A DNA stretch of 64,000 bases from a virus (IMGVR_UViG_3300008050_000037:5193-69192), one strand, 5' to 3'; shown: positions 1,112 to 41,207, counted from the first letter of the stretch. Notes: a model not told the origin generated them from the sequence alone. Translations and numbers: made by a program.

Positions 1112-1570
1112 GAGCGCATCGAGCATATTAACAGTTTTTGGGGATCCGCCGCCCACTGGATGGACCCAACACTTTGAGCCCCACGGACTATAAATGTTTG
1201 TACCCTTTTCGCACAGGGCAGCTAAGACTTGGCAGATATCAACATCTTCCAAAATATATTCTGGGGTTTCGTCGTCGAAGGCTTCGGGGTTGTTAAAGGC
1301 CACTCCAGCTTCAACCAGCAAAATCATCATATGCTCGGTTAGTTCTTCTCCAGAGATGGGCGCGTCAGACCAACAGTTCTCCGTAAAATACTCATGGCAC
1401 GAGGAATCTTCGATGACGGCCTGCATTTCAACGTAGCCGTTTTTAATCTCGATGAGTTGCATATCAACTCCATTGTCATACCAGTTAAGATATCTGTGAG
1501 TAAAGCAGTTAATCACTTTCTCGTAGATATCCTTGCCATACTTGGGCTTAAAGATCCAAGATGATTGCAT
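1091..1570 (-). CDS. Hypothetical protein
   Basis: 159-aa ORF on coding strand; no motif recognised. Confidence 0.6.
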   Translation of the reverse strand: MQSSWIFKPKYGKDIYEKVINCFTHRYLNWYDNGVDMQLIEIKNGYVEMQAVIEDSSCHEYFTENCWSDAPISGEELTEHMMILLVEAGVAFNNPEAFDDETPEYILEDVDICQVLAALCEKGTNIYSPWGSKCWVHPVGGGSPKTVNMLDALLTLQAA

Positions 1571-1582
1571 GTTTTTTACCCG

Positions 1583-1753
1583 CTATTTTGTGTAGGTTTT
1601 AGTGTGAGTGCATCGCACTTCACCAGTTGAGCCAATATGCTTGCATGTTTCTTGATGATGCGCGCGAGTGGGTTTAATGCCAACTGACGGCATTGGAACA
1701 TAACAACCGTAAGTTAAAACTGAGTATATCAAAACAAAAATAATCTTCTTCAT
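1583..1753 (-). CDS. Small putative lipoprotein (MKKIIFVLIYSVLTYGC...), 56 aa, not in ORF track
   Basis: Manually translated; basic N-terminus, hydrophobic stretch, lipobox-like Cys. Confidence 0.55.
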   Translation of the reverse strand: MKKIIFVLIYSVLTYGCYVPMPSVGIKPTRAHHQETCKHIGSTGEVRCTHTKTYTK

Positions 1754-1784
1754 TATTTTCCCTATGTGTGTGAGTAAAAAAATA

Positions 1785-1861
1785 TGGTTGACCCGGTGGG
1801 ACTTGAACCCACGACTCCCACCTTATAAGGATGACGCTCTAACCTACTGAGCTACGGGTCA
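1785..1861 (-). tRNA. tRNA-Ile (anticodon UAU)
   Basis: Acceptor stem TGACCCG/CGGGTCA, D arm GCTC..GAGC, loop CTTATAA, T arm GTGGG-TTCAAGT-CCCAC, encoded CCA. Confidence 0.9.
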
Positions 1862-1880
1862 GTAATCTGTCTACGCCCCA

Positions 1881-1908
1881 ACTATAGGAACCAAAAGATC
1901 CTGGTCAA
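1881..1908 (-). promoter_or_regulatory. Sigma70-like promoter TTGACC-N16-TATAGT upstream of tRNA-Ile
   Basis: Read from sequence; -35 overlaps stop codon of last array ORF. Confidence 0.6.
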
Positions 1909-2087
1909 GACTCAGAAATAAGAAGTAGTGTTTCTTCTCGTCGACTGTGCTCTTCGCCTTCAAGTATATATAATCTAACAGATTTTCCATCTCGTTCGCT
2001 TTCAATGACCTCTACAATCATTTTGGCCGGATAGATTTCTTTGTAGTTTGAATAGCTTGAAGGTATTACTAAATCACCGACTTTCAC
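1905..2087 (-). CDS. MKVGDLV-family small SH3/KOW-like protein (array cassette)
   Basis: MKVGDLVIP...LLLISES; GTG start in junction repeat. Confidence 0.75.
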   Translation of the reverse strand: MKVGDLVIPSSYSNYKEIYPAKMIVEVIESERDGKSVRLYILEGEEHSRREETLLLISES

Positions 2088-2274
2088 TGATCAGCTCCAG
2101 CTCTTCGACGCGGAATACGCACCTGCCGCCAGTGCTAGTCAGCATTACCTCTACGCGGTGGATCCAGTTAGCGGGTGATGGTTGGAAGATGTTTGTCACC
2201 AGTCCCTTAGTACGACCGTAGTTTCCTATTGTGGAATATGCTTCGCTCGCCATAACCAAATCACCGACTTTCAC
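2074..2274 (-). CDS. MKVGDLV-family cassette
   Basis: MKVGDLVMA...LELISESR; 14-nt overlaps at both ends. Confidence 0.8.
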   Translation of the reverse strand: MKVGDLVMASEAYSTIGNYGRTKGLVTNIFQPSPANWIHRVEVMLTSTGGRCVFRVEELELISESR

Positions 2275-2449
2275 TGAAATACTCCTTTAAGACTTCTTCC
2301 ATCGCATCGTGGACTCGCCTCTCAAGATCGATAGCTCGTAGCTTGTCCAAATCTAAGTCGAATGGAATATCTACTCGGCACTCAACAACACTTGGTCCGA
2401 TTGAAATATGGTAGTGTGCGCCAGGAGTCTGGCATTTATGTTCCCTCAC
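2261..2449 (-). CDS. Unrelated hypothetical cargo cassette (MREHKCQ...YFSESR)
   Basis: No MKVGD motif but same 14-nt overlaps and SESR end. Confidence 0.7.
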   Translation of the reverse strand: MREHKCQTPGAHYHISIGPSVVECRVDIPFDLDLDKLRAIDLERRVHDAMEEVLKEYFSESR

Positions 2450-2630
2450 CTACAACCTCGATAAACTTTTCGTCCATTGGACCTCCGTAATGGAAGTTCG
2501 CGGACGGGAGTGGGTGCAAGTCCCAGTAAGCTGTTCGTCCAACATAATCGTCATCCATCTTTGCCCTACCAAGAACAATATAGTAACCAACTTTCGCTGG
2601 TAAAACTTGTACTAGGTCACCCACTTTCAT
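2436..2630 (-). CDS. MKVGDLV-family cassette
   Basis: Start placed at ATG 2630 (MKVGDLVQV...IEVVGEGT). Confidence 0.75.
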   Translation of the reverse strand: MKVGDLVQVLPAKVGYYIVLGRAKMDDDYVGRTAYWDLHPLPSANFHYGGPMDEKFIEVVGEGT

Positions 2631-2796
2631 TAACCAACACCATGCGAGGCTCAACCGTCCACACGGGATCCTCTCCTTCGATAGTCAAAGATTGAATCTT
2701 CCACCAACGATTGCCAAACTTGCAGCCTCTATCTCTCTCGACCAAAATGTAATAACCATCTTTTTCAAGTAAAGTAACTAAATCACCCGCCTTCAT
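2617..2796 (-). CDS. MKAGDLV-family cassette, 59 aa, not in ORF track
   Basis: Manual translation MKAGDLVTLLEKDGYYILV...MVLVNESG*. Confidence 0.75.
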   Translation of the reverse strand: MKAGDLVTLLEKDGYYILVERDRGCKFGNRWWKIQSLTIEGEDPVWTVEPRMVLVNESG

Positions 2797-2813
2797 AAAT
2801 CACCCGCCTTCAT
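2780..2813 (-). repeat. Perfect 17-bp tandem duplication of junction (ATGAAGGCGGGTGATTT x2)
   Basis: aaatcacccgccttcat at 2780-2796 and 2797-2813; encodes 6-aa MKAGDL*. Confidence 0.9.
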
Positions 2814-3049
2814 TTTATATACATATACGTGATCATATCGTCGGCTTCTTCGATAATATCACCCGAAGGGAACCACTTAACTTCGTAAGATTCCTCTTCA
2901 AAATCACCGTCGGCCGATGGCACGCGGCGCAGAACTATTCCAACATTCCATTCGTATATTTCTGCTGCTGAATATCCAATACCACTGATCAGATTTTTCT
3001 TCTCGCTTGGAGAAAGTTTAACTAAATCGCCAACTTCAAACTTTGTCAC
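2810..3049 (-). CDS. Array cassette (MTKFEVGDLVKL...WFPSG), paralog of 8340-8567
   Basis: GTG at 3049 gives the standard 14-nt overlap with upstream ORF. Confidence 0.7.
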   Translation of the reverse strand: MTKFEVGDLVKLSPSEKKNLISGIGYSAAEIYEWNVGIVLRRVPSADGDFEEESYEVKWFPSGDIIEEADDMITYMYIK

Positions 3050-3242
3050 AAATAACCTCAACGCAATGCGATGGTGTCCAGGCTTCTTGTGGACCGTATT
3101 CGTCGGAAAACCAATAAATCCAAGCGCCTGGGCAGCTGCCTTCTCCATGTTCGATATCGTGCAAGTTTAAGACAATCCCTGTATGACCAACAAAATATGC
3201 ACGGCCAGGGTTAGACCATCTTACTAAATCACCGACTTTCAC
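3036..3242 (-). CDS. MKVGDLV-family cassette
   Basis: MKVGDLVRW...GIVL...IYW...VEVI. Confidence 0.8.
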   Translation of the reverse strand: MKVGDLVRWSNPGRAYFVGHTGIVLNLHDIEHGEGSCPGAWIYWFSDEYGPQEAWTPSHCVEVICDKV

Positions 3243-3445
3243 TATGGATTCCCCATAGTATTTTCGTCTTCTTCTGGTTCGGGCGTGTGTCTCAAGTCTT
3301 CGATACTGTGATATTCATTAAAGTTTCGATCGCCAAATCGCACAACGGCTTCCGGGGGACAGGTGTCGACGCGCATAACAAGTCCCGGCACAGCACAATC
3401 GTCACGAATGTCATCGGCATGCCAGACCAAATCACCTACTTTCAC
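3242..3445 (-). CDS. MKVGDLV-family cassette
   Basis: MKVGDLVWH...GLVMRV...; TAGTG overlap. Confidence 0.8.
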   Translation of the reverse strand: MKVGDLVWHADDIRDDCAVPGLVMRVDTCPPEAVVRFGDRNFNEYHSIEDLRHTPEPEEDENTMGNP

Positions 3446-3609
3446 TTACAGCCCTCGCACCTACCTTTAAGATAGTCCGCGACTATATCACCAATGACAT
3501 CCATCACGGCTTCAAAATCATCTTCATCGTCAAGGCAGCGCGACGAACATCTCTCAGCTAGAGCATCGCGTATAGAATCTTTAAGATTAAAAAAATCACC
3601 CGGCTTCAT
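3442..3609 (-). CDS. Cassette with junction-type start but helical acidic body (MKPGDFFNLKDSIRDALAERC...), 55 aa, not in ORF track
   Basis: Manual translation; 14-nt overlap with upstream ORF, GTGA overlap downstream. Confidence 0.65.
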   Translation of the reverse strand: MKPGDFFNLKDSIRDALAERCSSRCLDDEDDFEAVMDVIGDIVADYLKGRCEGCK

Positions 3610-3814
3610 TTAGAACCTCCAGCCAACCAGCGAGCATACAATCTCGGCCCCCACCTTCTTCTGCTAAGTGTGCCGGTGAAACCCAACGAACCCACCAGCG
3701 ATGTACACGCCGCTTGTGTTGCCGGTATACAATGCCGATCGGGTAGTATTGCTCGCCTCCAATATCGTCTGGTCCCCAAGGGTCAGCACTTTTTACCAAG
3801 TTACCGATTTTCAT
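3596..3814 (-). CDS. MKIGNLV-family cassette
   Basis: Start placed at ATG 3814; ends LEVLNEAG. Confidence 0.75.
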   Translation of the reverse strand: MKIGNLVKSADPWGPDDIGGEQYYPIGIVYRQHKRRVHRWWVRWVSPAHLAEEGGGRDCMLAGWLEVLNEAG

Positions 3815-3996
3815 ATTTTCTCCAGCCATCTGTAACTGTTCCAAGATTCTTGTGGACAGCCCCTTGGAGGGTTACACCAGTATACGAAATATCCGCATCT
3901 GTCCTCCGCGATCGCGTTTAAGTCTACCTCAACTATAATCCCCAAGCCGCTGCGGTCAAGGGCATGCGTATTATTTACCAAGTCACCGACTTTCAT
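3811..3996 (-). CDS. MKVGDLV-family cassette
   Basis: MKVGDLVNN...GIIVEV...VYW. Confidence 0.8.
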   Translation of the reverse strand: MKVGDLVNNTHALDRSGLGIIVEVDLNAIAEDRCGYFVYWCNPPRGCPQESWNSYRWLEKI

Positions 3997-4180
3997 CGAA
4001 TGGTCTCAACTCGTTGGGCATATAACCATAAACTGTACGTGGAGTGTCACCGCCGAAAAGAGACCAATGCACATCGATGAGTGTTATCCCATTGTGCTTT
4101 GACACCCTTACAACAATACCAGTCGACGTGCGCGTGTAGCCGGGTCGATCGCGATGGCGCACCAAATCACCGATTTTCAC
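3983..4180 (-). CDS. MKIGDLV-family cassette
   Basis: MKIGDLVRH...GIVVRV...VHW...DESR. Confidence 0.8.
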   Translation of the reverse strand: MKIGDLVRHRDRPGYTRTSTGIVVRVSKHNGITLIDVHWSLFGGDTPRTVYGYMPNELRPFDESR

Positions 4181-4349
4181 TTAACATCTCCAAAAGTTCG
4201 TGGTCGAGAGGATACAGCCCACTGTGTTCGGATTTGCCAAACCAGTGAATGATAGCCTGACCTCCCCACTTATCCTCGTCTATTTCTATAATGATGCCGA
4301 CGTCTTTCGCGTGTGGGTGTATCCACTTAACCAGATCACCGACTTTCAT
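4167..4349 (-). CDS. MKVGDLV-family cassette
   Basis: MKVGDLVKW...GIIIEI...IHW...LEMLSENR. Confidence 0.8.
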   Translation of the reverse strand: MKVGDLVKWIHPHAKDVGIIIEIDEDKWGGQAIIHWFGKSEHSGLYPLDHELLEMLSENR

Positions 4350-4530
4350 TGATAACCTCTATTTCGTTCTCAGTAAAAGGATAGGGACTAGACCAGCCTT
4401 GGTAAAGCACTAAATAGTTAGTTGACCAAGCACCGGCAGGCACGTATTGCACATCTTTGATTCCAGTGATCACGCCGATTTTACCAGCGTTGTGATTTTT
4501 GGTAATACGAACCAAGTCACCGACTTTCAT
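4336..4530 (-). CDS. MKVGDLV-family cassette, KOW-like
   Basis: Start placed at ATG 4530; GDLVRITKNHNAGKIGVI resembles a KOW motif; ends IEVINESR. Confidence 0.8.
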   Translation of the reverse strand: MKVGDLVRITKNHNAGKIGVITGIKDVQYVPAGAWSTNYLVLYQGWSSPYPFTENEIEVINESR

Positions 4531-4720
4531 TGATAACCTCCAGTATACACAACTGATAATGACCAGCCGCCGTGTATTTGCAAGCCCACTCAACATAGGC
4601 AGAGCCCTGACAAGGCTGCGAAGGGTGCGGCGGCTCAGGTAAATCCTTAAAGCGCAATACAATACCGAAAGGGCCACTGACCCTGTGGCCTGTAAACTTT
4701 ACCAAATCACCGACTTTCAT
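4517..4720 (-). CDS. MKVGDLV-family cassette, probably leaderless
   Basis: MKVGDLVKF...GIVL...VEW...LEVINESR. Confidence 0.8.
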   Translation of the reverse strand: MKVGDLVKFTGHRVSGPFGIVLRFKDLPEPPHPSQPCQGSAYVEWACKYTAAGHYQLCILEVINESR

Positions 4721-4726
4721 ACTACA

Positions 4727-4754
4727 ACCATAGAAACCAAAAAATTAAAGTCTA
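4727..4754 (-). promoter_or_regulatory. Internal array promoter TAGACT-N16-TATGGT
   Basis: Sits in the only intergenic gap of the array; -10 is 6 nt from ATG 4720. Confidence 0.5.
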
Positions 4755-4973
4755 GGCTTTTTGGATTATTGTTACTAAGCCTTCAGCCAAGGCATCTTCG
4801 CCAAGGTCACAGACGTAGGAAATACTCGGCCACTTTATCTTCCACGAGGGCATCACACCATCTGGGTATTCCGCAAGTTCGCCGACTACGCCCACTTCAT
4901 AGCCAGAACCAACGGACACAACAAGGCCTATCTCACCGTCATGCGTATCTTGAACCAAATCACCGACCTTCAC
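4752..4973 (-). CDS. MKVGDLV-family cassette
   Basis: Start placed at GTG 4973 (VKVGDLVQDTHDGEIGLVV...IKW). Confidence 0.75.
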   Translation of the reverse strand: MKVGDLVQDTHDGEIGLVVSVGSGYEVGVVGELAEYPDGVMPSWKIKWPSISYVCDLGEDALAEGLVTIIQKA

Positions 4974-5136
4974 TGATGACCTCAATATTCGCCTTGAAAG
5001 GGAGCGTGACTTTCCCGTCGGGCCACAGTACCTCACACGCTTCACTACTATGTGACCATGCCTTTACGATAATCCCATAGACCTTTTCAATACCAGGGAT
5101 GGGTACAGTGCGTCTTACCAAATCACCTACTTGCAT
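4960..5136 (-). CDS. MQVGDLV-family cassette, 58 aa, not in ORF track
   Basis: Manual translation MQVGDLVRRTVPIPGIEKVYGIIV...VLWPDGK...IEVISEGR*. Confidence 0.8.
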   Translation of the reverse strand: MQVGDLVRRTVPIPGIEKVYGIIVKAWSHSSEACEVLWPDGKVTLPFKANIEVISEGR

Positions 5137-5329
5137 TGATAACCTCTATACTACTTCGGTACTCAGGCATTGCATATGACACCGCCCATCTTTCGTCTGT
5201 CCATTCTGAATCGTACTTGTTCCACAATACAACAGGGTCATTATCTTCATCGTAGTCTACAATCACGCCCACATATCCATCATTTCTTCGCGGACCGTGG
5301 ACTGGTATGACCAAATCACCGACTTGCAC
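5123..5329 (-). CDS. MQVGDLV-family cassette
   Basis: GTG 5329; GVIV...VLW...IEVINASR. Confidence 0.8.
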   Translation of the reverse strand: MQVGDLVIPVHGPRRNDGYVGVIVDYDEDNDPVVLWNKYDSEWTDERWAVSYAMPEYRSSIEVINASR

Positions 5330-5501
5330 TGACAAGCTCCAAGGCGTATTTGGCGCAGCTTCCCGGCTCGCGGTCTGGCATTGTCGACCACTTGACCCGG
5401 CATCGTCTGGCCTGAGCCTCTACCGAGATAATGATTCCAATACCATACATTTGCGGTGGTGCTACGGCTGGTCTCATCTTTACCAAATCACCGACTTTCA
5501 C
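5316..5501 (-). CDS. MKVGDLV-family cassette
   Basis: GTG 5501; GIII...VKW...LELVSASR. Confidence 0.8.
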   Translation of the reverse strand: MKVGDLVKMRPAVAPPQMYGIGIIISVEAQARRCRVKWSTMPDREPGSCAKYALELVSASR

Positions 5502-5643
5502 TGACAATCTCCAGGCCAATAGTATAGTTGTCTGCATCTTCAACTGTGCCGTCATCGAGCCATCTTATCAATGTCTCGTAGGACTCGACACAGATGACGA
5601 GAGCAAGGTATCCGTTATGCTCTACCAAATCACCTACTTTCAT
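5488..5643 (-). CDS. MKVGDLV-family cassette
   Basis: ATG 5643; IRW...LEIVSESR. Confidence 0.8.
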   Translation of the reverse strand: MKVGDLVEHNGYLALVICVESYETLIRWLDDGTVEDADNYTIGLEIVSESR

Positions 5644-5806
5644 TAACAATCTCGCAGGCTTCTTTGACATATACCTTGGTGAACCACTCGATTCTTCCGT
5701 TAGGACACAGTATACCATATGGTGTCCGACACGTATCGTCTTTAATCGTTACCAATAAGCCCATTTCAGAATACTCACTGTCTTTTATCAAATCACCGAC
5801 TTTCAT
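5630..5806 (-). CDS. MKVGDLI-family cassette
   Basis: ATG 5806; ends CEIVNESR. Confidence 0.8.
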   Translation of the reverse strand: MKVGDLIKDSEYSEMGLLVTIKDDTCRTPYGILCPNGRIEWFTKVYVKEACEIVNESR

Positions 5807-5972
5807 AGTGATACTCCACATCGTCAGATTCTATTCCTTCGATTTCTCCATCGGACCACAAACATTCGAGCCAAAAGTTTTGTTTCAAGGGTCCGTGACC
5901 GGCAGGTATACCTGAAACATCTAGAATGATAGCAAACTCGCCACCACACTTTATCAAATCACCGAGTTTCAT
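5793..5972 (-). CDS. MKLGDLI-family cassette
   Basis: ATG 5972; CLWSDG...YHYESR. Confidence 0.75.
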   Translation of the reverse strand: MKLGDLIKCGGEFAIILDVSGIPAGHGPLKQNFWLECLWSDGEIEGIESDDVEYHYESR

Positions 5973-6264
5973 TAACTTTCTCCAAAATAATCCGGTCATA
6001 GAAAGCGCCTCGTTTTTCTCGCTTATCCACAGCAACACTTTCAACACCTTCCATTGAAAAATGGTGTAGTGTACAAAGAGCCCTCAAGACCTCAAATATA
6101 TCAGCTGCCTCTTCGTAAGAAGGATTCTCGATAAACTCTTCAAGCTCCTCTTGCATTTTCTTACACAAAAAATCTTGGTATTCGTCTAAGCCAGCGATGT
6201 GATAAACACACGTTTTCCCACCATCTTCAATAATCTTTGGGATGCCGTCTCTAACTAGCTTCAC
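5959..6264 (-). CDS. MazG-like / PRA-PH-like all-alpha NTP pyrophosphohydrolase, as array cargo
   Basis: KLVRDGIPKII, KMQEELEEF, EEAADIFEV, KREKRGAF match the COG4997-type family; 14-nt overlaps at both ends. Confidence 0.8.
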   Translation of the reverse strand: MKLVRDGIPKIIEDGGKTCVYHIAGLDEYQDFLCKKMQEELEEFIENPSYEEAADIFEVLRALCTLHHFSMEGVESVAVDKREKRGAFYDRIILEKVNETR

Positions 6265-6448
6265 TTATAACCTCCAACTCATATTCGCTCCACCATCCAA
6301 TCTCTTTCTTCCAGTGAACCTCAAAAAATACTATACCATAGTCATCTTCATAGGCATCTAAAACAATACCATATTTACGCTCTTCAAAATCAGCACCAAG
6401 CACATTGGTGATGCCAGGACGTAATCGAACAACATCACCGACCTTCAC
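6251..6448 (-). CDS. MKVGDVV-family cassette
   Basis: GIVL...VHW...LEVISEAS. Confidence 0.8.
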   Translation of the reverse strand: MKVGDVVRLRPGITNVLGADFEERKYGIVLDAYEDDYGIVFFEVHWKKEIGWWSEYELEVISEAS

Positions 6449-6626
6449 TTACGACCTCCAAAAAATCGCAGCGGGCGAACAGTGTTGGCTTGTGGCAACC
6501 AGCCCACAAGATGTAGGGGCTCCAACCCCAGGATCCGCAGCGCATAACGAGGCCGATATCATCGGGTGTTCGACCATAAGTTTTGCATACTCCCGATTCA
6601 ATCCTTACTAAATCACCGATCTTCAT
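6435..6626 (-). CDS. MKIGDLV-family cassette
   Basis: GLVM...ILW...LEVVSEGR. Confidence 0.8.
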   Translation of the reverse strand: MKIGDLVRIESGVCKTYGRTPDDIGLVMRCGSWGWSPYILWAGCHKPTLFARCDFLEVVSEGR

Positions 6627-6850
6627 GCCCTGCTCATAATGTGAAACATATCGTCAGCGCTCACAAAATCTTCAGCGTTCCAGGGGTCTGTCAAAGTTTT
6701 GTTAGCAACGCTCCAGACAATTTCAACCATAAGTCGATAATCATCGAAATATGTTCTTAGCACAATACCAATATCGCCATCGGAACACCCAATCATATCG
6801 CCGGTATTCGGATATCCTGGGCCGTTATTTACGTCCATAGATATATTCAT
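6623..6850 (-). CDS. Divergent member of the small beta-barrel family
   Basis: PNTGDMIGC...GIVL...IVW pattern. Confidence 0.6.
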   Translation of the reverse strand: MNISMDVNNGPGYPNTGDMIGCSDGDIGIVLRTYFDDYRLMVEIVWSVANKTLTDPWNAEDFVSADDMFHIMSRA

Positions 6851-7079
6851 CTTTTTGTTTCCGTGCCAATTGCTTGAATCTGTACTCAGCCTTCTGGGCT
6901 GAAGATCGATCTTCGAAGACTGTCTGATAAATCAACTCAACAGGTCTTCTTGTCTTCGTATATTTCGCGCCTGTAGACAAAGCGTTGTGCTCTTTAAGGC
7001 GCCGGGTAATATCCGTTGTTACACCTGTATAATAAGTACCATCGGCGCAAAGTAAAACATAAAGGTACCAGTTTTTCAT
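6825..7079 (-). CDS. Stand-alone GIY-YIG nuclease (UPF0213/YhbQ-like)
   Basis: WYLYVLLCADGTYYTGVTTDITRRLKEHN...GAKYTKTRRPV...AQKAE. Confidence 0.9.
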   Translation of the reverse strand: MKNWYLYVLLCADGTYYTGVTTDITRRLKEHNALSTGAKYTKTRRPVELIYQTVFEDRSSAQKAEYRFKQLARKQKDEYIYGRK

Positions 7080-7375
7080 ACAGCACTGATAACCTTAAAC
7101 AAGGGAAAGCCACTTCGACTTTTGATAGCGACGAAGCACTCACCAATATTGTCCCTACGTTCGGCGAAAATGCGATCGCCTTCGGCATTATACATAGATG
7201 GGCGCGGGCCTGTGCCATCGAGCCAAAAAACTTTCACCATCTCTGTTTCCTTGAGATGGTCGAGCCATGTGTTTTTGGCAAAGCCCAAAACCAGTGCTCG
7301 ATGAGTCGATCCACCTGAGTTGAACCAAACCAAATCGCCCGTGTTGATATTCAAAACCCACCCTTGCCCCGCCAC
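7076..7375 (-). CDS. Divergent member of the small beta-barrel family
   Basis: INTGDLVWF...ALVL...VFW...FKVISA. Confidence 0.6.
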   Translation of the reverse strand: MAGQGWVLNINTGDLVWFNSGGSTHRALVLGFAKNTWLDHLKETEMVKVFWLDGTGPRPSMYNAEGDRIFAERRDNIGECFVAIKSRSGFPLFKVISAV

Positions 7376-7476
7376 TTCTCTTGTGGCTCAACACACTTCT
7401 ACATATATGTAGTCACAACTTATCTAGGATCAACAGTAAAAATTAATTTGTACAATTAAAATTCTATATGTCGGCC

Positions 7477-7809
7477 TCACACATAAGTTGTCCAGGCCGT
7501 GCGCATGCGTTTTCGCCACTTGATCGAGCCGTCCAGACACTTAATATAGATATAGTCCACGCCGTCGGCTTCGGGATCATATGCGTAATCTGGTGTGTCA
7601 TCAGACAAAAATTCAGACTCGTCCGTTTCGGGAGAAAAAAGACGATAGCCTCCGTGCGTACCTGCGACTACGATATGGTCATATAGCTGCTCATGGGAAC
7701 AAAATTTTATTTGCTTCAACATATGATCGGGATATCCATCATAGTGACAGTAGACACCGATGTAATCTCCGTCTTCTTTTTCAAGAAACAAAGTGCTAGA
7801 CGTACCCAT
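7477..7809 (-). CDS. Conserved phage hypothetical protein (YxHxDGYP motif)
   Basis: GVYCHYDGYPDH motif. Confidence 0.7.
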   Translation of the reverse strand: MGTSSTLFLEKEDGDYIGVYCHYDGYPDHMLKQIKFCSHEQLYDHIVVAGTHGGYRLFSPETDESEFLSDDTPDYAYDPEADGVDYIYIKCLDGSIKWRKRMRTAWTTYV

Positions 7810-7992
7810 TTAGGCCGCGCTCGTCGAATCTAGTTTTTCAGATATTTCAACCAGAAGCCTTCTGATATCGTCGATTCTCTTTTCTAGTTTTTCTTGTTTT
7901 TCGGTCTGAATAGCAGTTCTGAGAAGATAGAGTTGCTTCTTCGCTTCCGTTAGTTTGTCATCGACCGGATTTGGAACATAAATTCTAGGCAT
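7810..7992 (-). CDS. Small coiled-coil hypothetical protein
   Basis: ORF with GGAGG upstream. Confidence 0.6.
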   Translation of the reverse strand: MPRIYVPNPVDDKLTEAKKQLYLLRTAIQTEKQEKLEKRIDDIRRLLVEISEKLDSTSAA

Positions 7993-8006
7993 CTTAAAGT
8001 GTCCTC

Positions 8007-8294
8007 CTAATGTATACAGTAGTCTCCATCGTACTCCCAGGAACAGCTATCGCCCCAGATACACCATTCTTCTACACAATCCCATCCTACATCCCATGTG
8101 CAGCAGTCTATGCCGTATTGGGGGCTCGACGCGCAAGTTTGCGGGAGATAATTATATGGTTGAGAATATTCACATATATGGTAATCCATATATAAGGGTG
8201 GATAAATAGGTGTCTCGTACCCAAGTGAATCTGGCATACTGGTGTCGATGCACCCGTACATAAACAAAAATACAATAAAAAATAAATAACGCAT
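8007..8294 (-). CDS. Cys-rich putative lipoprotein
   Basis: MRYLFFIVFLFMYGC signal and lipobox-like Cys; many Cys/Trp in C-terminal half. Confidence 0.65.
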   Translation of the reverse strand: MRYLFFIVFLFMYGCIDTSMPDSLGYETPIYPPLYMDYHICEYSQPYNYLPQTCASSPQYGIDCCTWDVGWDCVEEWCIWGDSCSWEYDGDYCIH

Positions 8295-8339
8295 AACTTT
8301 CCCCCCTGTGTCCTGGGGGCCTCGAAACTAAAATAGATA

Positions 8340-8567
8340 CTATTTCTCTTTCGTCAACAAAATAATTGAATTATTGGTTTCTTCGTGAAGCTCTCCAGAA
8401 GGAAACCATCGTACAAGATATTGAAATAATGAAGTTTTTTGTTTTGGATGTGCTTCAATAACCAGCCCATAATTCCAGTCATCAAAGGCTGTCAGTCCGG
8501 CGTCTTCTTTCAATATCTTTCTTTCAGAAGACGACAGGGTTACCAAATCGCCAACTTTAAATTTCAT
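8340..8567 (-). CDS. Dispersed KVGDLV-family protein, paralog of 2810-3049
   Basis: MKFKVGDLVTLSSSE...WNYGLV...YLVRWFPSG. Confidence 0.75.
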   Translation of the reverse strand: MKFKVGDLVTLSSSERKILKEDAGLTAFDDWNYGLVIEAHPKQKTSLFQYLVRWFPSGELHEETNNSIILLTKEK

Positions 8568-8782
8568 TTCTTCTTTTTTCCAGAAAGCAAATTTGCCAAT
8601 TTAAGTCGCTCGTGCATTTTCAAATTTTCAGAAAGCATTTCCTGAAATTCTTCAGACAACTTAATCAATATATTCATAGCACTAACATCAAGAGTAAAGA
8701 CATTTCTTTTTTGCATAGCAGCAACCTTGTTTCTCGCCTCGTTTAAAAGATCAAGCCGCTTTTGAAACTTTCTTTTTTCCAC
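8564..8782 (-). CDS. Hypothetical protein
   Basis: ORF with GGAGG upstream and ATGA coupling. Confidence 0.6.
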   Translation of the reverse strand: MEKRKFQKRLDLLNEARNKVAAMQKRNVFTLDVSAMNILIKLSEEFQEMLSENLKMHERLKLANLLSGKKKK

Positions 8783-8798
8783 TGTGCGGCCTCCATTT

Positions 8799-9788
8799 TT
8801 AAACTTTGTATTTACTGTCAGAAAAAAATATCTCTACATTTGAGAACTGTTCCTCAATGAATTCTGTAAATTGCTTTTCACCTTTAAATTCATATAACTC
8901 ACCGTTATTAAGTAGTTTCCAGGTTTCCAAATTGCGTAAAATATCAACTTTGTTCAAGACAAGCTTATTGATACCATTGATATTTATTGCACGCCGAAGG
9001 GTATTCAACTCCAAAAAATTACATTGACGGGGGCGGCCAGTTGTGGCTCCGTATTCTTCCCCCGCCTCACGTACGCGAGCAAAAAACTCTACTTGCTCTT
9101 TTGGCTCAAATTGTTTTGAGCCAACATAAGTTTCGTATACTTTTCCTACTCCCCATACATCGCGTATCCAAGTGTGAGGAACAGCATTTAAAAGTGCCCC
9201 TGCGGTGCCGACGTGGCTAGAAGTAACAAATGGATAATCGCCCCAATCAATATCCAGGCTGAATCCCTGCGCTCCCTCACATAAAACTTTAACCGATTTG
9301 TCTCCATGAAATTCCTCATATAAATCAACTATATACGGCCTTAAAGAAGGCACGTCTTTTGCTTGTATGCCGACTCTTGCGTGCTTATCGCGGTAGGCCG
9401 GTCCATTTCCTCGTTTTGTTGTTCCAATTTTTGTCTCGTAATTCTCTTCCATAATGTGAAGGTCTGTAATCACATGTGTGTTGTGGGCAATAAAAACCTT
9501 ACCATCGGTGTCAATTCCCCCTTCTTTAAGTTCTTGTAGTTCTTTAAAAAATTGTGGAGGACTCACAACACATCCAGGGCCTATAATTGATTTAATTCCA
9601 TAAAATACTCCTGCTGGGATATGGTGTGTTACGAATTTACGACCTTCGTGATAAATCGTATGGCCGGCGTTGCATCCGCCGTTAAATCTTAGTACATGCG
9701 TATAATCCTTACACTTGCATAAGTAGTGTGTTACTTTTCCTTTCGCCTCGTCTCCATGTTGTACTCCAATTACCACATCTGCTAACAC
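8799..9788 (-). CDS. purA: Adenylosuccinate synthetase (short form)
   Basis: QHGDEAKGK, NAGHT, GTTKRGNGPAY, EGAQG, YPFVTSS, EYGATTGRPR. Confidence 0.92.
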   Translation of the reverse strand: MLADVVIGVQHGDEAKGKVTHYLCKCKDYTHVLRFNGGCNAGHTIYHEGRKFVTHHIPAGVFYGIKSIIGPGCVVSPPQFFKELQELKEGGIDTDGKVFIAHNTHVITDLHIMEENYETKIGTTKRGNGPAYRDKHARVGIQAKDVPSLRPYIVDLYEEFHGDKSVKVLCEGAQGFSLDIDWGDYPFVTSSHVGTAGALLNAVPHTWIRDVWGVGKVYETYVGSKQFEPKEQVEFFARVREAGEEYGATTGRPRQCNFLELNTLRRAININGINKLVLNKVDILRNLETWKLLNNGELYEFKGEKQFTEFIEEQFSNVEIFFSDSKYKV

Positions 9789-10059: not shown

Positions 10060-11931
10060 TTAAGCGTACTCGGCATCAATGATATCATCATCGCCGCTTT
10101 GGGACGGCGGGACGTCTTCCTGTTGGCTTTCTTCTTTTTGTGCCTCATACAAAATCTTGCTTGCCGCATGAACCGCCTTTTCTAAGTTGGTATACGCGGC
10201 TTCGTAAGCTTCCGCATTTGAATTTTGAACTGCATTTCTTACTTCTTCCATGGACGCCTCAACCTGCTGTCTGGAGTCGTCATCTAATTGATCCTTATTC
10301 TTGATAACACTTTCTGCCTGAAAAATTAAAGTATTTAGCTTGTTCGTCCACTCAACCTCGTGCCTTTTCTTTTTGTCTGCCTCTTCGTTTTCTTTTGCGT
10401 CTTGTACCATACGATCGATATCGGCATCGTTTAGCCCACTGGCATCAGCTATTGTTATATCCTGCTCTTTTCCAGTGGCTTTGTCTTTGGCAACAACACT
10501 CAAGATGCCGTCTGCGTTAATATTAAAAGTTACTTCAACTTGAGGTACGCCCCGGGGAGCCGGGGGAATTCCGTCTAGAGTAAAATTGCCCAGAGTTCTA
10601 TTATCGGAAGCCATTTGGCGCTCACCCTGTAGTACATGAATAGTGACCGCTAGCTGATTGTCATCTGCCGTGGAAAAAATTTGTGACTTTTTTACCGGTA
10701 CCGTTGTATTTCTTTCAATCAAAGCCGTGCATATGCCGCCTAAAGTTTCAATACCCAGACTCAAAGGTGTTACGTCCAATAACAAAACATCACTTACATC
10801 GCCAGACAAAACACCTCCTTGTACAGCGGCGCCAAGAGCAACAACCTCATCTGGATTGACACTATGACTAGGCTCTTTCCCAAAGAAATCTGTTACTCTT
10901 TTGGCAACCAAGGGAATTCGTGTCGAGCCTCCGACGAGAAGTACTTCGTCGATATCTCCAACTTTCTTTCCGGCATCTTTTAGCGCCTTCCTGCACGAAG
11001 TAAAAGTCTTTTTAACCAAGCCGTCGATCATCGTTTCAAATTTCGATCGCTCAATGCTAACGGTCAGGTGTTTTGGACCGGTCGCATCAGCGGTTAAGAA
11101 AGGAAGATTGACCTCTGTTCTAACGGTAGAGCTTAGTTCCTTCTTGGCTTTTTCTGCGGCTTCTCTGAGACGCTGCATGGCCATAGGATCACCCGAAATA
11201 TTAATACCAGTGTCTTTCTTAAATTCTTTAAGCAAATGCTTAATAATCTTTTCATCAACATTATCTCCTCCCAGGCGTGTATCACCAGAAGTCGATAGTA
11301 CTTCAACGATATCCTCGCCCACTTCTAAAATAGACACATCAAAGGTGCCGCCGCCAAAATCATATACAGCAATAACCTGATCGGACTTGCTTCCAAGACC
11401 ATAAGCCAAAGCTGCAGCAGTCGGCTCGTTGATAATGCGCTTAACTTTCAGACCAGCAATCTTTCCAGCATCGCGCGTCGCTTGCCGTTGGCTATCATTA
11501 AAATAAGCCGGCACAGTAATAACTGCTTCTGTTACTTCGCCTCCAAGATACTTTTCAGCTGATCTCTTCAGCTTCTGCAACACTTTCGCACTCAATTCTG
11601 GCGGGCTATATTCTTTTCCAGAAACCATAATTGAAGCCTGTCCAGAAGCGGCACGTGCCACTTCAAAGGGCATATTTTCTGCCGATTCCTTTACTTCGTC
11701 ATAGCTCGAACCTATAAAACGCTTAACTGAATAAATAGTTTCCTTGGGTTTTACAACTGCTTGGCGGCGCGCGGTGGCACCCACCAAAACTTCTTCGTCG
11801 TTTCCAAAACCAATCACTGAAGGAGTTGTTCTACTGCCTTCCTCATTTACAAGAACCTTGGGTTCTCTACCTTCCATAACGGCTACACACGAATTCGTGG
11901 TACCTAAATCAATTCCAATAATTTTTGACAT
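10060..11931 (-). CDS. dnaK: Hsp70 chaperone DnaK
   Basis: [54 protein letters not shown]. Confidence 0.97.
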
Positions 11932-39798: not shown

Positions 39799-40095
39799 CT
39801 AATATCTTACAATAATACGACGATGGTGCCGATGATGATGATATGCTCTGTTTGGCGACCTATATATATAGTGATGAATCCGGCCGCGCTTGTTATATAC
39901 TGGAATTGAATTTGGTGAAATTTGACGAGTGGCCCTGGCGTGGGAAGACCCGGGATGGCCATAGTGCGCTTGGGTTGCGCTATGGCCACCATATATATGT
40001 CCGGACGGGCGATACGAATTATAATCATCCGCGTATACATAACGCGTGCATGAAGATATCATAGCAAAACAAATTAAAATTATAAACTTATTCAT
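39799..40095 (-). CDS. His/Tyr/Arg-rich putative lipoprotein
   Basis: MNKFIILICFAMISSC signal and lipobox-like Cys. Confidence 0.55.
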   Translation of the reverse strand: MNKFIILICFAMISSCTRYVYADDYNSYRPSGHIYGGHSATQAHYGHPGSSHARATRQISPNSIPVYNKRGRIHHYIYRSPNRAYHHHRHHRRIIVRY

Positions 40096-41207
40096 TTTTC
40101 TTCCCCATCTATATCATAATATTCTGATGCGTCACCGACACGATCCTTGAATTTCAATATAATCTCTCTATCCATAATGTCAAGTACCCTGCTCTTAAAT
40201 TTCTCACTTTGAAGCTTCTCCTTCCACTTTGATGCTTGAAACTTTTCACTACTACCATCTTCATATGTTAGATTATACCAGGCGCCGGCTTGTTTTATAC
40301 TTTCTGTACCCTTTATGGCTTCAAACCAGCTTTCTTCATCTTGAATAAAAATATCTCCACCCCAAAGAATTTTGAAAGTGCATTGACGACCTTGTGTACC
40401 AAAGCGACTTTTCTTGAGTGTACATTTAACTTCAGATCCAACCCTGAAGCCGCGGCCATCCGTTATGAAAGAAGCCTTTGCTTTACGACCCGTAAGCCAT
40501 ATGCGTAATGAATAAGCATACGTTAATGCTTTTCCGCCCGGGGTCACATAAGGTGTAGTCATCGCTTCAGCTATATTATTTGTAATATTAGTCTTAAGTT
40601 GGTTTAAGACCAAGAGCGTTGACTTGGAGTTGGCAATTGGTACCGTTAGTTTTGACATCCCTTTCGAAAGGATCCTCGCTTTGACAGCCATAGAAGATTG
40701 TGGATTAAAATCTCCCTCTATATCACTTATAGCTGGTGTGAGAGCCAAACTATCCCAAATAAATAACATTTTGTTTTCATTAGATCCAAGCAGCTCTTCT
40801 ATTGTTTCTAAGACAAATTCAACACTTTGTGCTTGTACATATAAAAGCTTATCTAGATCACACCCAGCCTTCTCCAAGAAACTTGGATCAATAGCAGATT
40901 CTGAATCGAAATAAATTACATCAATATCCATTTTCTGAGCATTGGCTGCAACTTGTGCTGCCATATAAGATTTACCACTACTCTCCAGGCCAGCAATTTC
41001 AACAATTTTTCCTACTGGAACTCCAGCCAATTGTCCTCGACATATTATGCTATCAAGCCAGCGTGAACCAGTGGGAATCCAGTCTTTAACTTCAGTTGGG
41101 TTATCTTCCCTCAAATTATGTGCGACGGTCACACCCACCTTTTTGTTGATGAGGTTGCGCATTTCATTTAAGTTTAGTCTTCCAAGTTTATTCGGCTTCT
41201 TCGCCAC
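40092..41207 (-). CDS. recA: RecA/UvsX recombinase
   Basis: IPTGS, GLESSGKS, DSE, WDSL, NQL, TPGGKA. Confidence 0.92.
   Translation of the reverse strand: MAKKPNKLGRLNLNEMRNLINKKVGVTVAHNLREDNPTEVKDWIPTGSRWLDSIICRGQLAGVPVGKIVEIAGLESSGKSYMAAQVAANAQKMDIDVIYFDSESAIDPSFLEKAGCDLDKLLYVQAQSVEFVLETIEELLGSNENKMLFIWDSLALTPAISDIEGDFNPQSSMAVKARILSKGMSKLTVPIANSKSTLLVLNQLKTNITNNIAEAMTTPYVTPGGKALTYAYSLRIWLTGRKAKASFITDGRGFRVGSEVKCTLKKSRFGTQGRQCTFKILWGGDIFIQDEESWFEAIKGTESIKQAGAWYNLTYEDGSSEKFQASKWKEKLQSEKFKSRVLDIMDREIILKFKDRVGDASEYYDIDGEEK

Follow-up and report, generated by a model that had tools for sequence, protein, structure and literature searches.

A two-frame coding junction repeated through a small-gene array of an uncultured marine phage, and gene changes bounded by it among relatives

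How can an array of small overlapping genes gain, lose and exchange members when the joins between them are themselves coding? The question is raised by a stretch of viral DNA of 64,000 nucleotides (nt), the whole of which was analysed and is here called the window (bases 5193-69192 of the 69-kilobase (kb) IMG/VR virus record IMGVR_UViG_3300008050_000037, or G000, judged 38% complete), and which carries on its minus strand a core array of tandem genes joined by a short repeated junction. A sequence-only reading had described about 25 tandem open reading frames (ORFs) of 51-101 amino acids (aa) with nineteen exact 14-nt overlaps; the gene table contains 25 such genes on the minus strand, from 6626 down to 1905, and places an overlap of exactly 14 nt at 19 of their 24 junctions, each where it had been reported, so that the observation of the junction array is confirmed. 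Among related phages, insertions, deletions and replacements of whole genes are bounded by this junction. The explanation favoured here, at a probability of roughly 0.7, is that a unit carrying its own joint was duplicated and that short-homology recombination or template switching at the joint shuffles the genes; junction-bounded gene shuffling is supported as a working mechanism.

Anatomy and coding constraints of the junction

The junction reads in two frames. The family start, RTG AAA GTC GGT GAT, becomes xRT GAA AGT CGG TGA when read one base back, which encodes (S/N)-E-S-R followed by a stop, and the remaining out-of-frame reading stops at R-TGA to give a 4-nt overlap. Because both stops are built into the family start, an upstream gene that enters out of frame ends 14 or 4 nt beyond that start, and the 14-nt overlap itself is a by-product of the start sequence. 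On the upstream side the L-E-V-I codons are xxG GAG GTn ATC, placing GGAGG 6 nt ahead of the next start, and the repeat ends in the Shine-Dalgarno sequence and start of the downstream gene (consensus TTGGAGGTnATCA-RTG). The consensus proposed earlier, LEVI(N/S)ESR* in the upstream frame and MKVGDLV in the downstream frame, was a correct reading of the sequence. Neighbouring genes of the array are probably translationally coupled, to judge from the position of GGAGG before each start. Of 884 family genes in 119 loci, 607 overlap by 14 nt and 116 by 4 nt, and the other 161 are arranged differently.

Within the window this anatomy was observed directly. Non-coding DNA is absent from the 14-nt joins, that is, between 19 of the 24 gene pairs of the core array, and the other five junctions comprise two 4-nt overlaps (3814 and 3445), one 1-nt overlap (3242) and gaps of +31 nt before 4720 and +13 nt before 2796. 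A 13-mer core, TGAAAGTCGGTGA, occurs with at most one mismatch in 17 copies, every one of them on the minus strand within 2074-6447, against an expectation of 0.09 (standard deviation 0.32) and a count of 17 in none of 100 shuffles. In-register exact runs between pairs of window junctions have a median length of 8 nt and a maximum of 24 nt; the maximum, already noticed in the sequence-only reading, is the identity of 4336-4359 with 4517-4540 and is the longest among 300 junction pairs. The duplicated start block of the array (Table 1) looks like a slip within the junction itself. At two minus-strand junctions, 2436-2449 (GTGAGGGAACATAA) and 3036-3049 (GTGACAAAGTTTGA), the starts have diverged and the exact 14-nt overlap, the GTGA and the T of the stop are all kept; from their sequence these look like diverged descendants of the standard joint.

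To examine the constraints acting on the junction, codon usage was counted in the 775 of 884 genes that remain once one exact 19-mer match per locus is removed. Glu in the C-terminal motif is written GAG 381 times out of 390, compared with 44% in gene interiors, which bears out the earlier proposal that the L-E-V codons act as the Shine-Dalgarno sequence. For the same residue GAG is used in 396 of 409 genes that have a further gene after them and in 26 of 40 array-terminal genes (Fisher p 1.7e-9); the upstream half of the junction is therefore conserved because it is a ribosome-binding site, a constraint that is relaxed where no gene follows. Where the start supplies the upstream stop, GGT is used without exception (528/528) and the Arg of the upstream tail is written CGG or AGG in 498 of 528. 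Starts without a 14-nt overlap nevertheless favour the same codons over gene interiors, with GGT at 173/247 (70%, interior 30%), GTC at 102/166 (61%, interior 21%) and AAA at 179/220 (81%, interior 50%), whereas all four Val codons are in use at codon 7. Most of the conservation of the junction is functional, yet the start block is also uniform at silent sites, in line with the claim that conservation goes beyond protein constraint plus overlap. This uniformity fits repeated recombinational spread of the block, or selection on its DNA or RNA, and some ascertainment bias may remain in it.

A consensus scan of 1500-9000 gave 15 promoter-like sites, compared with 15.3 expected from shuffling, with none placed at junctions and none listed in the 4721-4751 spacer, and 5 terminator-like sites, compared with 4.9 expected. 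No hairpin was found when 14 junctions (66 nt) were folded as single-stranded DNA (z from -1.74 to +1.24, with no common stem).

Rearrangements among relatives and how they may arise

The 19-mer junction start is present in at least 118 IMG/VR stretches, most of them one-strand arrays with 140-200-nt spacing, and 34 of the 118 listed loci have at least one neighbouring gene in common with the window. Four records (G001 to G004) have the flanks of the window, namely an adenylosuccinate-synthetase-like gene and a transfer RNA (tRNA)-Lys gene on one side and a tRNA-Ile gene and a 264-aa gene on the other. Between these common flanks the sets and orders of the small genes, hereafter cassettes, differ among the window and all four records, as had been expected of a variable array. 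Cassette clusters defined at 55% identity or more change position among the window, G001, G002 and G003: cluster 17 is central in the array of the window and penultimate in that of G001, cluster 31 also shifts, and cluster 13 follows a 101-aa unrelated gene in the window and is close to the 3′ end in G002. For the two moved cassettes that are best conserved, the match extends from one junction to the next (window 5112-5333 at 94% and 5787-5984 at 96%). Synonymous divergence (dS) between the window and G001 ranges by cassette from 0.07 to over 1.8.

The closest pair, G001 and G002, is 99.5% identical over 4.2 kb and 99.0% over 0.9 kb, and the two are three clean insertions or deletions (indels) and two replacements apart. 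The indels comprise one cassette of 232 nt, one cassette with its spacer of 244 nt, and two genes of 336 nt. Read base by base, all three crossovers fall within the junction, with exact parental identity of 13, 11-19 and 8 nt, and the crossover point within the junction is not constant; three of the four edges of the replacements also lie in a junction. The same was seen over all loci between blocks of at least 90% identity, where, of 12 distinct clean indels, 11 have a repeat overlap of 12-40 nt at the junction; their sizes run from 175 to 1352 nt, roughly one to seven cassettes. Unique internal ends of such blocks fall between -25 and +30 of a junction start in 222 of 306 cases, a region that makes up 6.1% of bases in 119 loci, and these ends touch 156 of 519 junctions in 43 loci. 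Breakpoints inside the junction, which the earlier reading had anticipated, are thus the common outcome. In one minus-strand gene of G002 (L120:2407-2559) a normal junction start (MKAGDLVRH..) is followed by a frameshift, and the second half reaches ..ELEIVNESR* in a different frame, which points to a pseudogene or else to an error in sequencing.

Parts of the stretch are contained in 24 marine runs, and the Logan contigs of four of these (X2-X5) were compared across window positions 1700-7400. Those of run X2 span 13 of the 19 overlaps in the order of the window, with 0-2 differences. Contigs of all four runs end at or near junctions, the joint acting as a branch point for the assembler, and metagenome assemblies probably recover such arrays incompletely.

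These observations are consistent with the following course of events. The array would have grown by tandem duplication of one unit carrying its own joint, giving a hyperplastic operon. In one half of that joint the conserved N-terminus M-K-V-G-D, with TGA in its -1 frame, ends the upstream gene after the tail (S/N)-E-S-R, and in the other the conserved last strand L-E-V-I, written xxG GAG GTn, supplies the Shine-Dalgarno sequence at a distance of 6 nt from the start. The demands of the protein, the ribosome-binding site and the stop would keep the joint alike and make a block of about 33 nt the sole DNA-alike part of each unit, and therefore the sole place at which misaligned or foreign arrays could pair. 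Recombination or template switching there would delete, add, replace or reorder whole genes, sometimes unrelated ones, and would always rebuild a working joint. The exchange could use the phage's own UvsX-like system, since a UvsX-like recombinase and an exonuclease are both phage-encoded and a UvsX/RecA-like protein is a plausible enzyme for exchange at short homology.

Several observations weigh against shuffling at the joint as a mechanism. The fourth edge of the G001/G002 replacements lies inside a gene, about 100 nt from its start, and 84 of the 306 block ends fall off the junction windows, in a sample whose ends are non-independent, related loci sharing events. Within populations, the contigs of the four marine runs show no junction-to-junction joints; the joints listed there match by 20-25 nt to one side, come from contigs of other phages that have the junction in common with the window, and are neutral on deletions or circles. 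The exact homology at crossovers is very short (8-19 nt in G001/G002), so efficient homologous recombination is not a given. The loci were collected with the junction 19-mer, and their codon statistics carry an ascertainment bias that the dropping of one match per locus corrects in part. Finally, random illegitimate events everywhere, followed by survival of in-register products, could give the same pattern, and the same data fit the junction either as a mechanistic hot spot or as the mark of survivors of in-register selection.

The last of these points is the most serious alternative, and is considered unlikely. It takes the array as ordinary tandem paralogs in which illegitimate breaks are random and selection keeps whole-gene changes, the junction being a survivor's mark and not a preferred crossover site. 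Codon usage bears on it in both directions: the drop of GAG in terminal genes, the invariance of GGT where a stop is needed compared with its freer use elsewhere, and the writing of the tail Arg by both CGG and AGG are what selection on function would leave, but GTC, GGT and AAA are over-used even at starts that have no upstream overlap, while the Val of codon 7 is free. Crossover tracts as short as 8-13 nt would suit illegitimate joining, but 11 of the 12 clean indels carry 12-40 nt of repeat overlap and are not blunt joins, and cassettes have been moved and replaced as well, which requires two in-register joins. Illegitimate recombination followed by functional selection is also the standard view of how phage mosaics are built (PMC3974807).

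It is very improbable that the differences among relatives are assembly chimeras, formed as assemblers jump between strains at a repeated junction. Every record compared is a metagenome assembly, contigs of the four marine runs stop at junctions or close to them, with many short ones matching the window across 20-25 nt of junction alone; the three indel crossovers of G001/G002, however, have an exact identity of 8-19 nt, and usual assembler word sizes exceed this. Chimeras would also have to account for dS values from 0.07 to over 1.8 among cassettes of the same two records, for identical spacing patterns in the separate records L008 and L009, and for the agreement in order between the window and the X2 contigs. 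Least probable of all is a true site-specific, integron-like system with a dedicated recombinase recognising the junction, since despite cassette-like behaviour and a joint uniform in at least 118 stretches, no tyrosine recombinase (PF00589) was found in G000 (69 kb, 38% complete) or G002 (158 kb, 87% complete) by a search that recovered 14 of 14 control genomes and left serine recombinases and the missing genome parts unsearched, the 14 folded junctions have no hairpin, and the crossover point varies within the junction.

Short-homology shuffling at a self-propagated joint hence remains the preferred explanation, and a wider extension of it can be put forward tentatively. The junction might have evolved into a "coding att site", a self-propagating two-frame joint held uniform throughout a broad clade of uncultured marine phages, by which SH3-like mini-binders in their thousands, and the occasional unrelated gene, form a common pool and are swapped cassette by cassette between co-infecting phages with no dedicated recombinase, perhaps via excised circles; the array might then be a recombinase-free counterpart of the integron and a fast-changing arsenal against host defences.

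Protein family, unrelated genes and genome context

Cassette interiors had been described as unalignable by eye. This did not hold: MAFFT aligns 22 of the 25 core-array genes and three outliers as one family with the pattern MKVGDLV ... G-I-V ... W ... L-E-V-I-(S/N)-E-S-R, in which paralogs are 18-33% identical to the first member, so that most cassettes are paralogs. The span of 1905-6626 given for the array stood as the extent of the gene array, and the family reaches further, to the three outlying members of Table 1; its profile has 25 matches in the whole record, every one within window positions 1908-8567. Cassettes are real genes under purifying selection. The ratio of nonsynonymous to synonymous divergence in the protein core has a defined value in 11 of the 15 pairs of orthologous cassettes, being 0-0.35 in nine and 0.63-0.67 in two, both weakly diverged; of the other four pairs, two have no amino-acid change in the core and two have saturated dS.

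The proteins are predicted to be small SH3/KOW-like barrels. An AlphaFold2 model built from a 25-sequence alignment has a predicted local distance difference test score (pLDDT) of 91.3 and four strands by DSSP, and its best Foldseek matches are SH3-like barrels at template modelling (TM) scores of 0.63-0.78, all with expectation values (E) of 0.03 or above (Spt5/NusG KOW, Mind bomb/HERC2 repeats, FeoA, NdhS, YorP and PsaE). Pfam KOW matched one of seven family proteins scanned (E 0.005, 17.1 bits, under the cut-off of 22.3); apart from this sub-threshold match in Pfam, cassettes have no significant family in PHROGs or NCBIfam. The family proteins may serve as varied small binders for host takeover, early in infection.

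The family is large. A profile search of 1.84 billion representatives clustered at 50% identity returned 1,911 at E <= 1e-3, nearly all of them stand-alone proteins of 52-75 aa, whereas a word-index protein search with one cassette found 3 relatives besides itself and an Atlas search returned unnamed viral clusters only. Among the best 150 matches, 142 are short proteins, of which 119 start M[KQR]xG[DN] and 104 end E-x-[R/G/W] (79 of these ESR); since the termini are kept in short relatives, the overlap design travels with the family. Three relatives (P0006, P0025 and P0038, 115-129 aa) are in-frame two-domain fusions, with a second MKVGD or MQVGD directly after the first domain, as though the frame offset of the junction were gone. 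Fused proteins made by programmed frameshifting at the overlap were considered, and have no support beyond these few. Two long proteins, P0020 (803 aa) and P0074 (2269 aa), contain 6 and 14 stretches matching the family profile and may be unrelated repeat proteins with a common KVGD strand.

Three genes of the core array (Table 1) are unrelated cargo, for none of which a family was found in Pfam, PHROGs or NCBIfam. The 101-aa cargo, which also had no significant match in PDB sequence searches and whose AlphaFold2 model has a pLDDT of 48, has a GTGA overlap and an outside position relative to the array in G001 and G002, and stands inside the array in the window and G003, where the upstream cassettes differ and where the 14-nt overlap with each of them arises from the TAG in its own GTT-AGA; its C-terminus (..ILEKV) itself reads TTGGAGAAAGTT ahead of the next start. 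For the 55-aa helical cargo, the cassette that provided MKPGD still lies upstream of the gene's copy in G001, and the join in the window falls at a common GTGATT microhomology. From such joins at GTGATT and at junction-like ends it follows that unrelated genes enter by the same short homologies.

The array belongs to an uncultured marine phage of roughly 180 kb. The window codes for a DnaK-like protein, GroEL, a DnaE-type polymerase, a ribonucleotide reductase, a DnaB-like helicase, a UvsX-like recombinase, a tail sheath of 1362 aa and two tRNAs. Positions 10060-11931 and 16066-17649, both on the minus strand, hold the DnaK-like and GroEL-like genes; the first is full length and 52-59% identical to its listed matches, some of which are annotated DnaK, and the second matches phrog_5725 (E 1e-144). 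Searches of 50,697 phage records with the array (megablast), one cassette (tblastn) and a 45-nt junction (blastn) found no cultured close relative, in a collection from which the window's near records were perhaps excluded; the blastn search gave just 19-22-nt matches (E 0.8) in unrelated genes. In more distant relatives (L007, L028, L054 and L055, with DnaE 63% identical) arrays of the family adjoin the DnaE polymerase gene, and the genomic site of the array therefore differs by lineage.

Table 1. Positions of the array, its junctions and other features in the window
Feature	Position	Strand	Remarks
Core array, 25 tandem genes, 51-101 aa	1905..6626	(-)	22 of the MKVGDLV...GIV...W...LEVIsESR* family; gene table, MAFFT
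14-nt start/stop overlaps, first ten	2074-2087, 2261-2274, 2436-2449, 2617-2630, 3036-3049, 3596-3609, 3983-3996, 4167-4180, 4336-4349, 4517-4530	(-)	
14-nt start/stop overlaps, other nine	4960-4973, 5123-5136, 5316-5329, 5488-5501, 5630-5643, 5793-5806, 5959-5972, 6251-6264, 6435-6448	(-)	
Example of a full junction	4336..4366	(-)	Upstream L/I-E-V-I codons with GAGG(T), 6-nt spacer, ATG, AAA GTC GGT GAT; TGA inside GGT-GAT is the upstream stop
Duplicated start block	2780..2813	(-)	17-nt junction start (ATGAAGGCGGGTGATTT) in head-to-tail duplicate, giving a 6-codon ORF MKAGDL* between two ATGA overlaps; single copy at that place in G001 and G002
Sole sizeable non-coding spacer of the array, 31 nt	4721..4751	(-)	Kept with the upstream cassette (..VTIIQKA*) in G001, lost with the cassette in G002
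Cargo, 62 aa	2261..2449	(-)	14-nt overlap at each end; starts GTGAGGGAACATAA, ends ..YFSESR*
Helical cargo, 55 aa	3442..3609	(-)	First 5 codons (MKPGD) from a family cassette
Cargo, 101 aa (MKLVRD...)	5959..6264	(-)	14-nt overlap at each end; upstream stop is TAG in its own GTT-AGA codons
Family member with N-terminal extension (..NTGDMIGC..FHIMSRA*)	6623..6850	(-)	ATGA overlap to next gene; alignment, profile
GIY-YIG nuclease-domain protein, 84 aa	6825..7079	(-)	Between family members; PF01541, E 1.3e-17
Outlying family member (..NTGDLVWF..KVISAV*)	7076..7375	(-)	Alignment, profile
Outlying family member, MKFKVGDLV subtype	8340..8567	(-)	Paralog of 2810-3049; alignment, profile
UvsX/RecA-like recombinase	40092..41207	(-)	phrog_97, E 3.2e-59; context only

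Comparison with known systems

At the level of the protein, the family may resemble KOW/SH3-like small barrels (Spt5/NusG KOW, FeoA, NdhS, YorP), to judge from its predicted barrel, possibly of five strands, its TM scores and its weak KOW match, but it has no significant sequence membership in those families and consists of stand-alone proteins of 51-80 aa with very variable loops. At the level of the locus, one parallel is the poxvirus "genomic accordion", in which a tandem family expands by unequal crossing-over between copies that are near-identical along their length and recombine anywhere. The array likewise consists of tandem paralogs whose copy number shifts by misaligned recombination; unlike the accordion, its interiors are 18-33% identical, and the joint, with a longest identity of 24 nt, is the only part able to pair.

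Integron cassettes form one-directional arrays of small promoterless genes that are handled by an IntI-type recombinase at an attC hairpin and share a standard joint. Content and order that differ between relatives, a uniform joint and one-directional small genes are common to the two systems, and the earlier description of the locus as integron-like stands in this respect as an analogy of cassette behaviour. It does not extend to identity, which was rejected: neither G000 nor G002, both incomplete, has a tyrosine recombinase match and no IntI-type enzyme was found, none of the 14 folded junctions contains an attC-like hairpin, there is no non-coding site, the crossover point is variable, and the cargo is mostly of one family (22 of 25 genes are paralogs, with three unrelated). 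Lambdoid phages provide a further parallel, since their modular evolution has been linked to boundary or "linker" sequences at which modules meet. Conserved boundary sequences in phage mosaics are an older idea (PMC3974807). Lambdoid boundaries are sporadic and lie between functional modules, whereas the present joint is serial, self-propagating and coding for both of its neighbours.

The closest known system is the promoter-early stem-loop (PeSL) of hyperplastic regions in T4-type phages (Arbiol et al. 2010, PMC2839356; Comeau et al. 2014, PMC4122927). PeSLs are intergenic elements with about 100 bp conserved that contain a sigma-70 promoter and a terminator stem-loop and flank unrelated ORFans (PMC2839356), and PeSL mini-circles have been demonstrated (PMC2839356/PMC4122927). 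The sequence-only reading had named PeSLs as an analogue and had set them apart as intergenic promoter elements, and both the comparison and the difference are accurate. As with PeSLs so described, a short repeat is spread among many small non-essential genes and closes with the Shine-Dalgarno sequence and start of the gene that follows it, close relatives differ by indels and replacements that have their limits at the repeat, and an exchange carries the expression signals which that following gene needs. The junction repeat differs from the same descriptions in being about 33 nt long, fully coding and two-framed, in joining mostly paralogs of one family, and in probably coupling translation, not transcription. 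It has no sigma-70-type promoter or terminator stem-loop, and identity with PeSLs was rejected; by analogy, the array appears to work like PeSL shuffling but is not a PeSL system.

A full-text literature search found no paper describing a coding dual-frame junction of this design. Phage hyperplastic regions house most unknown genes, and their turnover has been worked out closely in only a few T4-type phages in culture, through PeSLs. A large uncultured marine group has a different solution, in which expression signals, a stop and the next start are packed into about 33 coding bases that are also the site of gene gain, loss and swap. Because many ORFs in such arrays are missed or mis-started, the design provides a concrete annotation rule; the arrays also provide a natural setting in which to ask whether phage mosaicism reflects a recombination hot spot or a selection filter, and form a natural library of very small proteins, predicted to be barrels, built on one scaffold in 1,911 clusters at 50% identity. 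Taken together, the finding is a variant of repeat-mediated modular shuffling, to which a coding dual-frame repeat is added as a new element.

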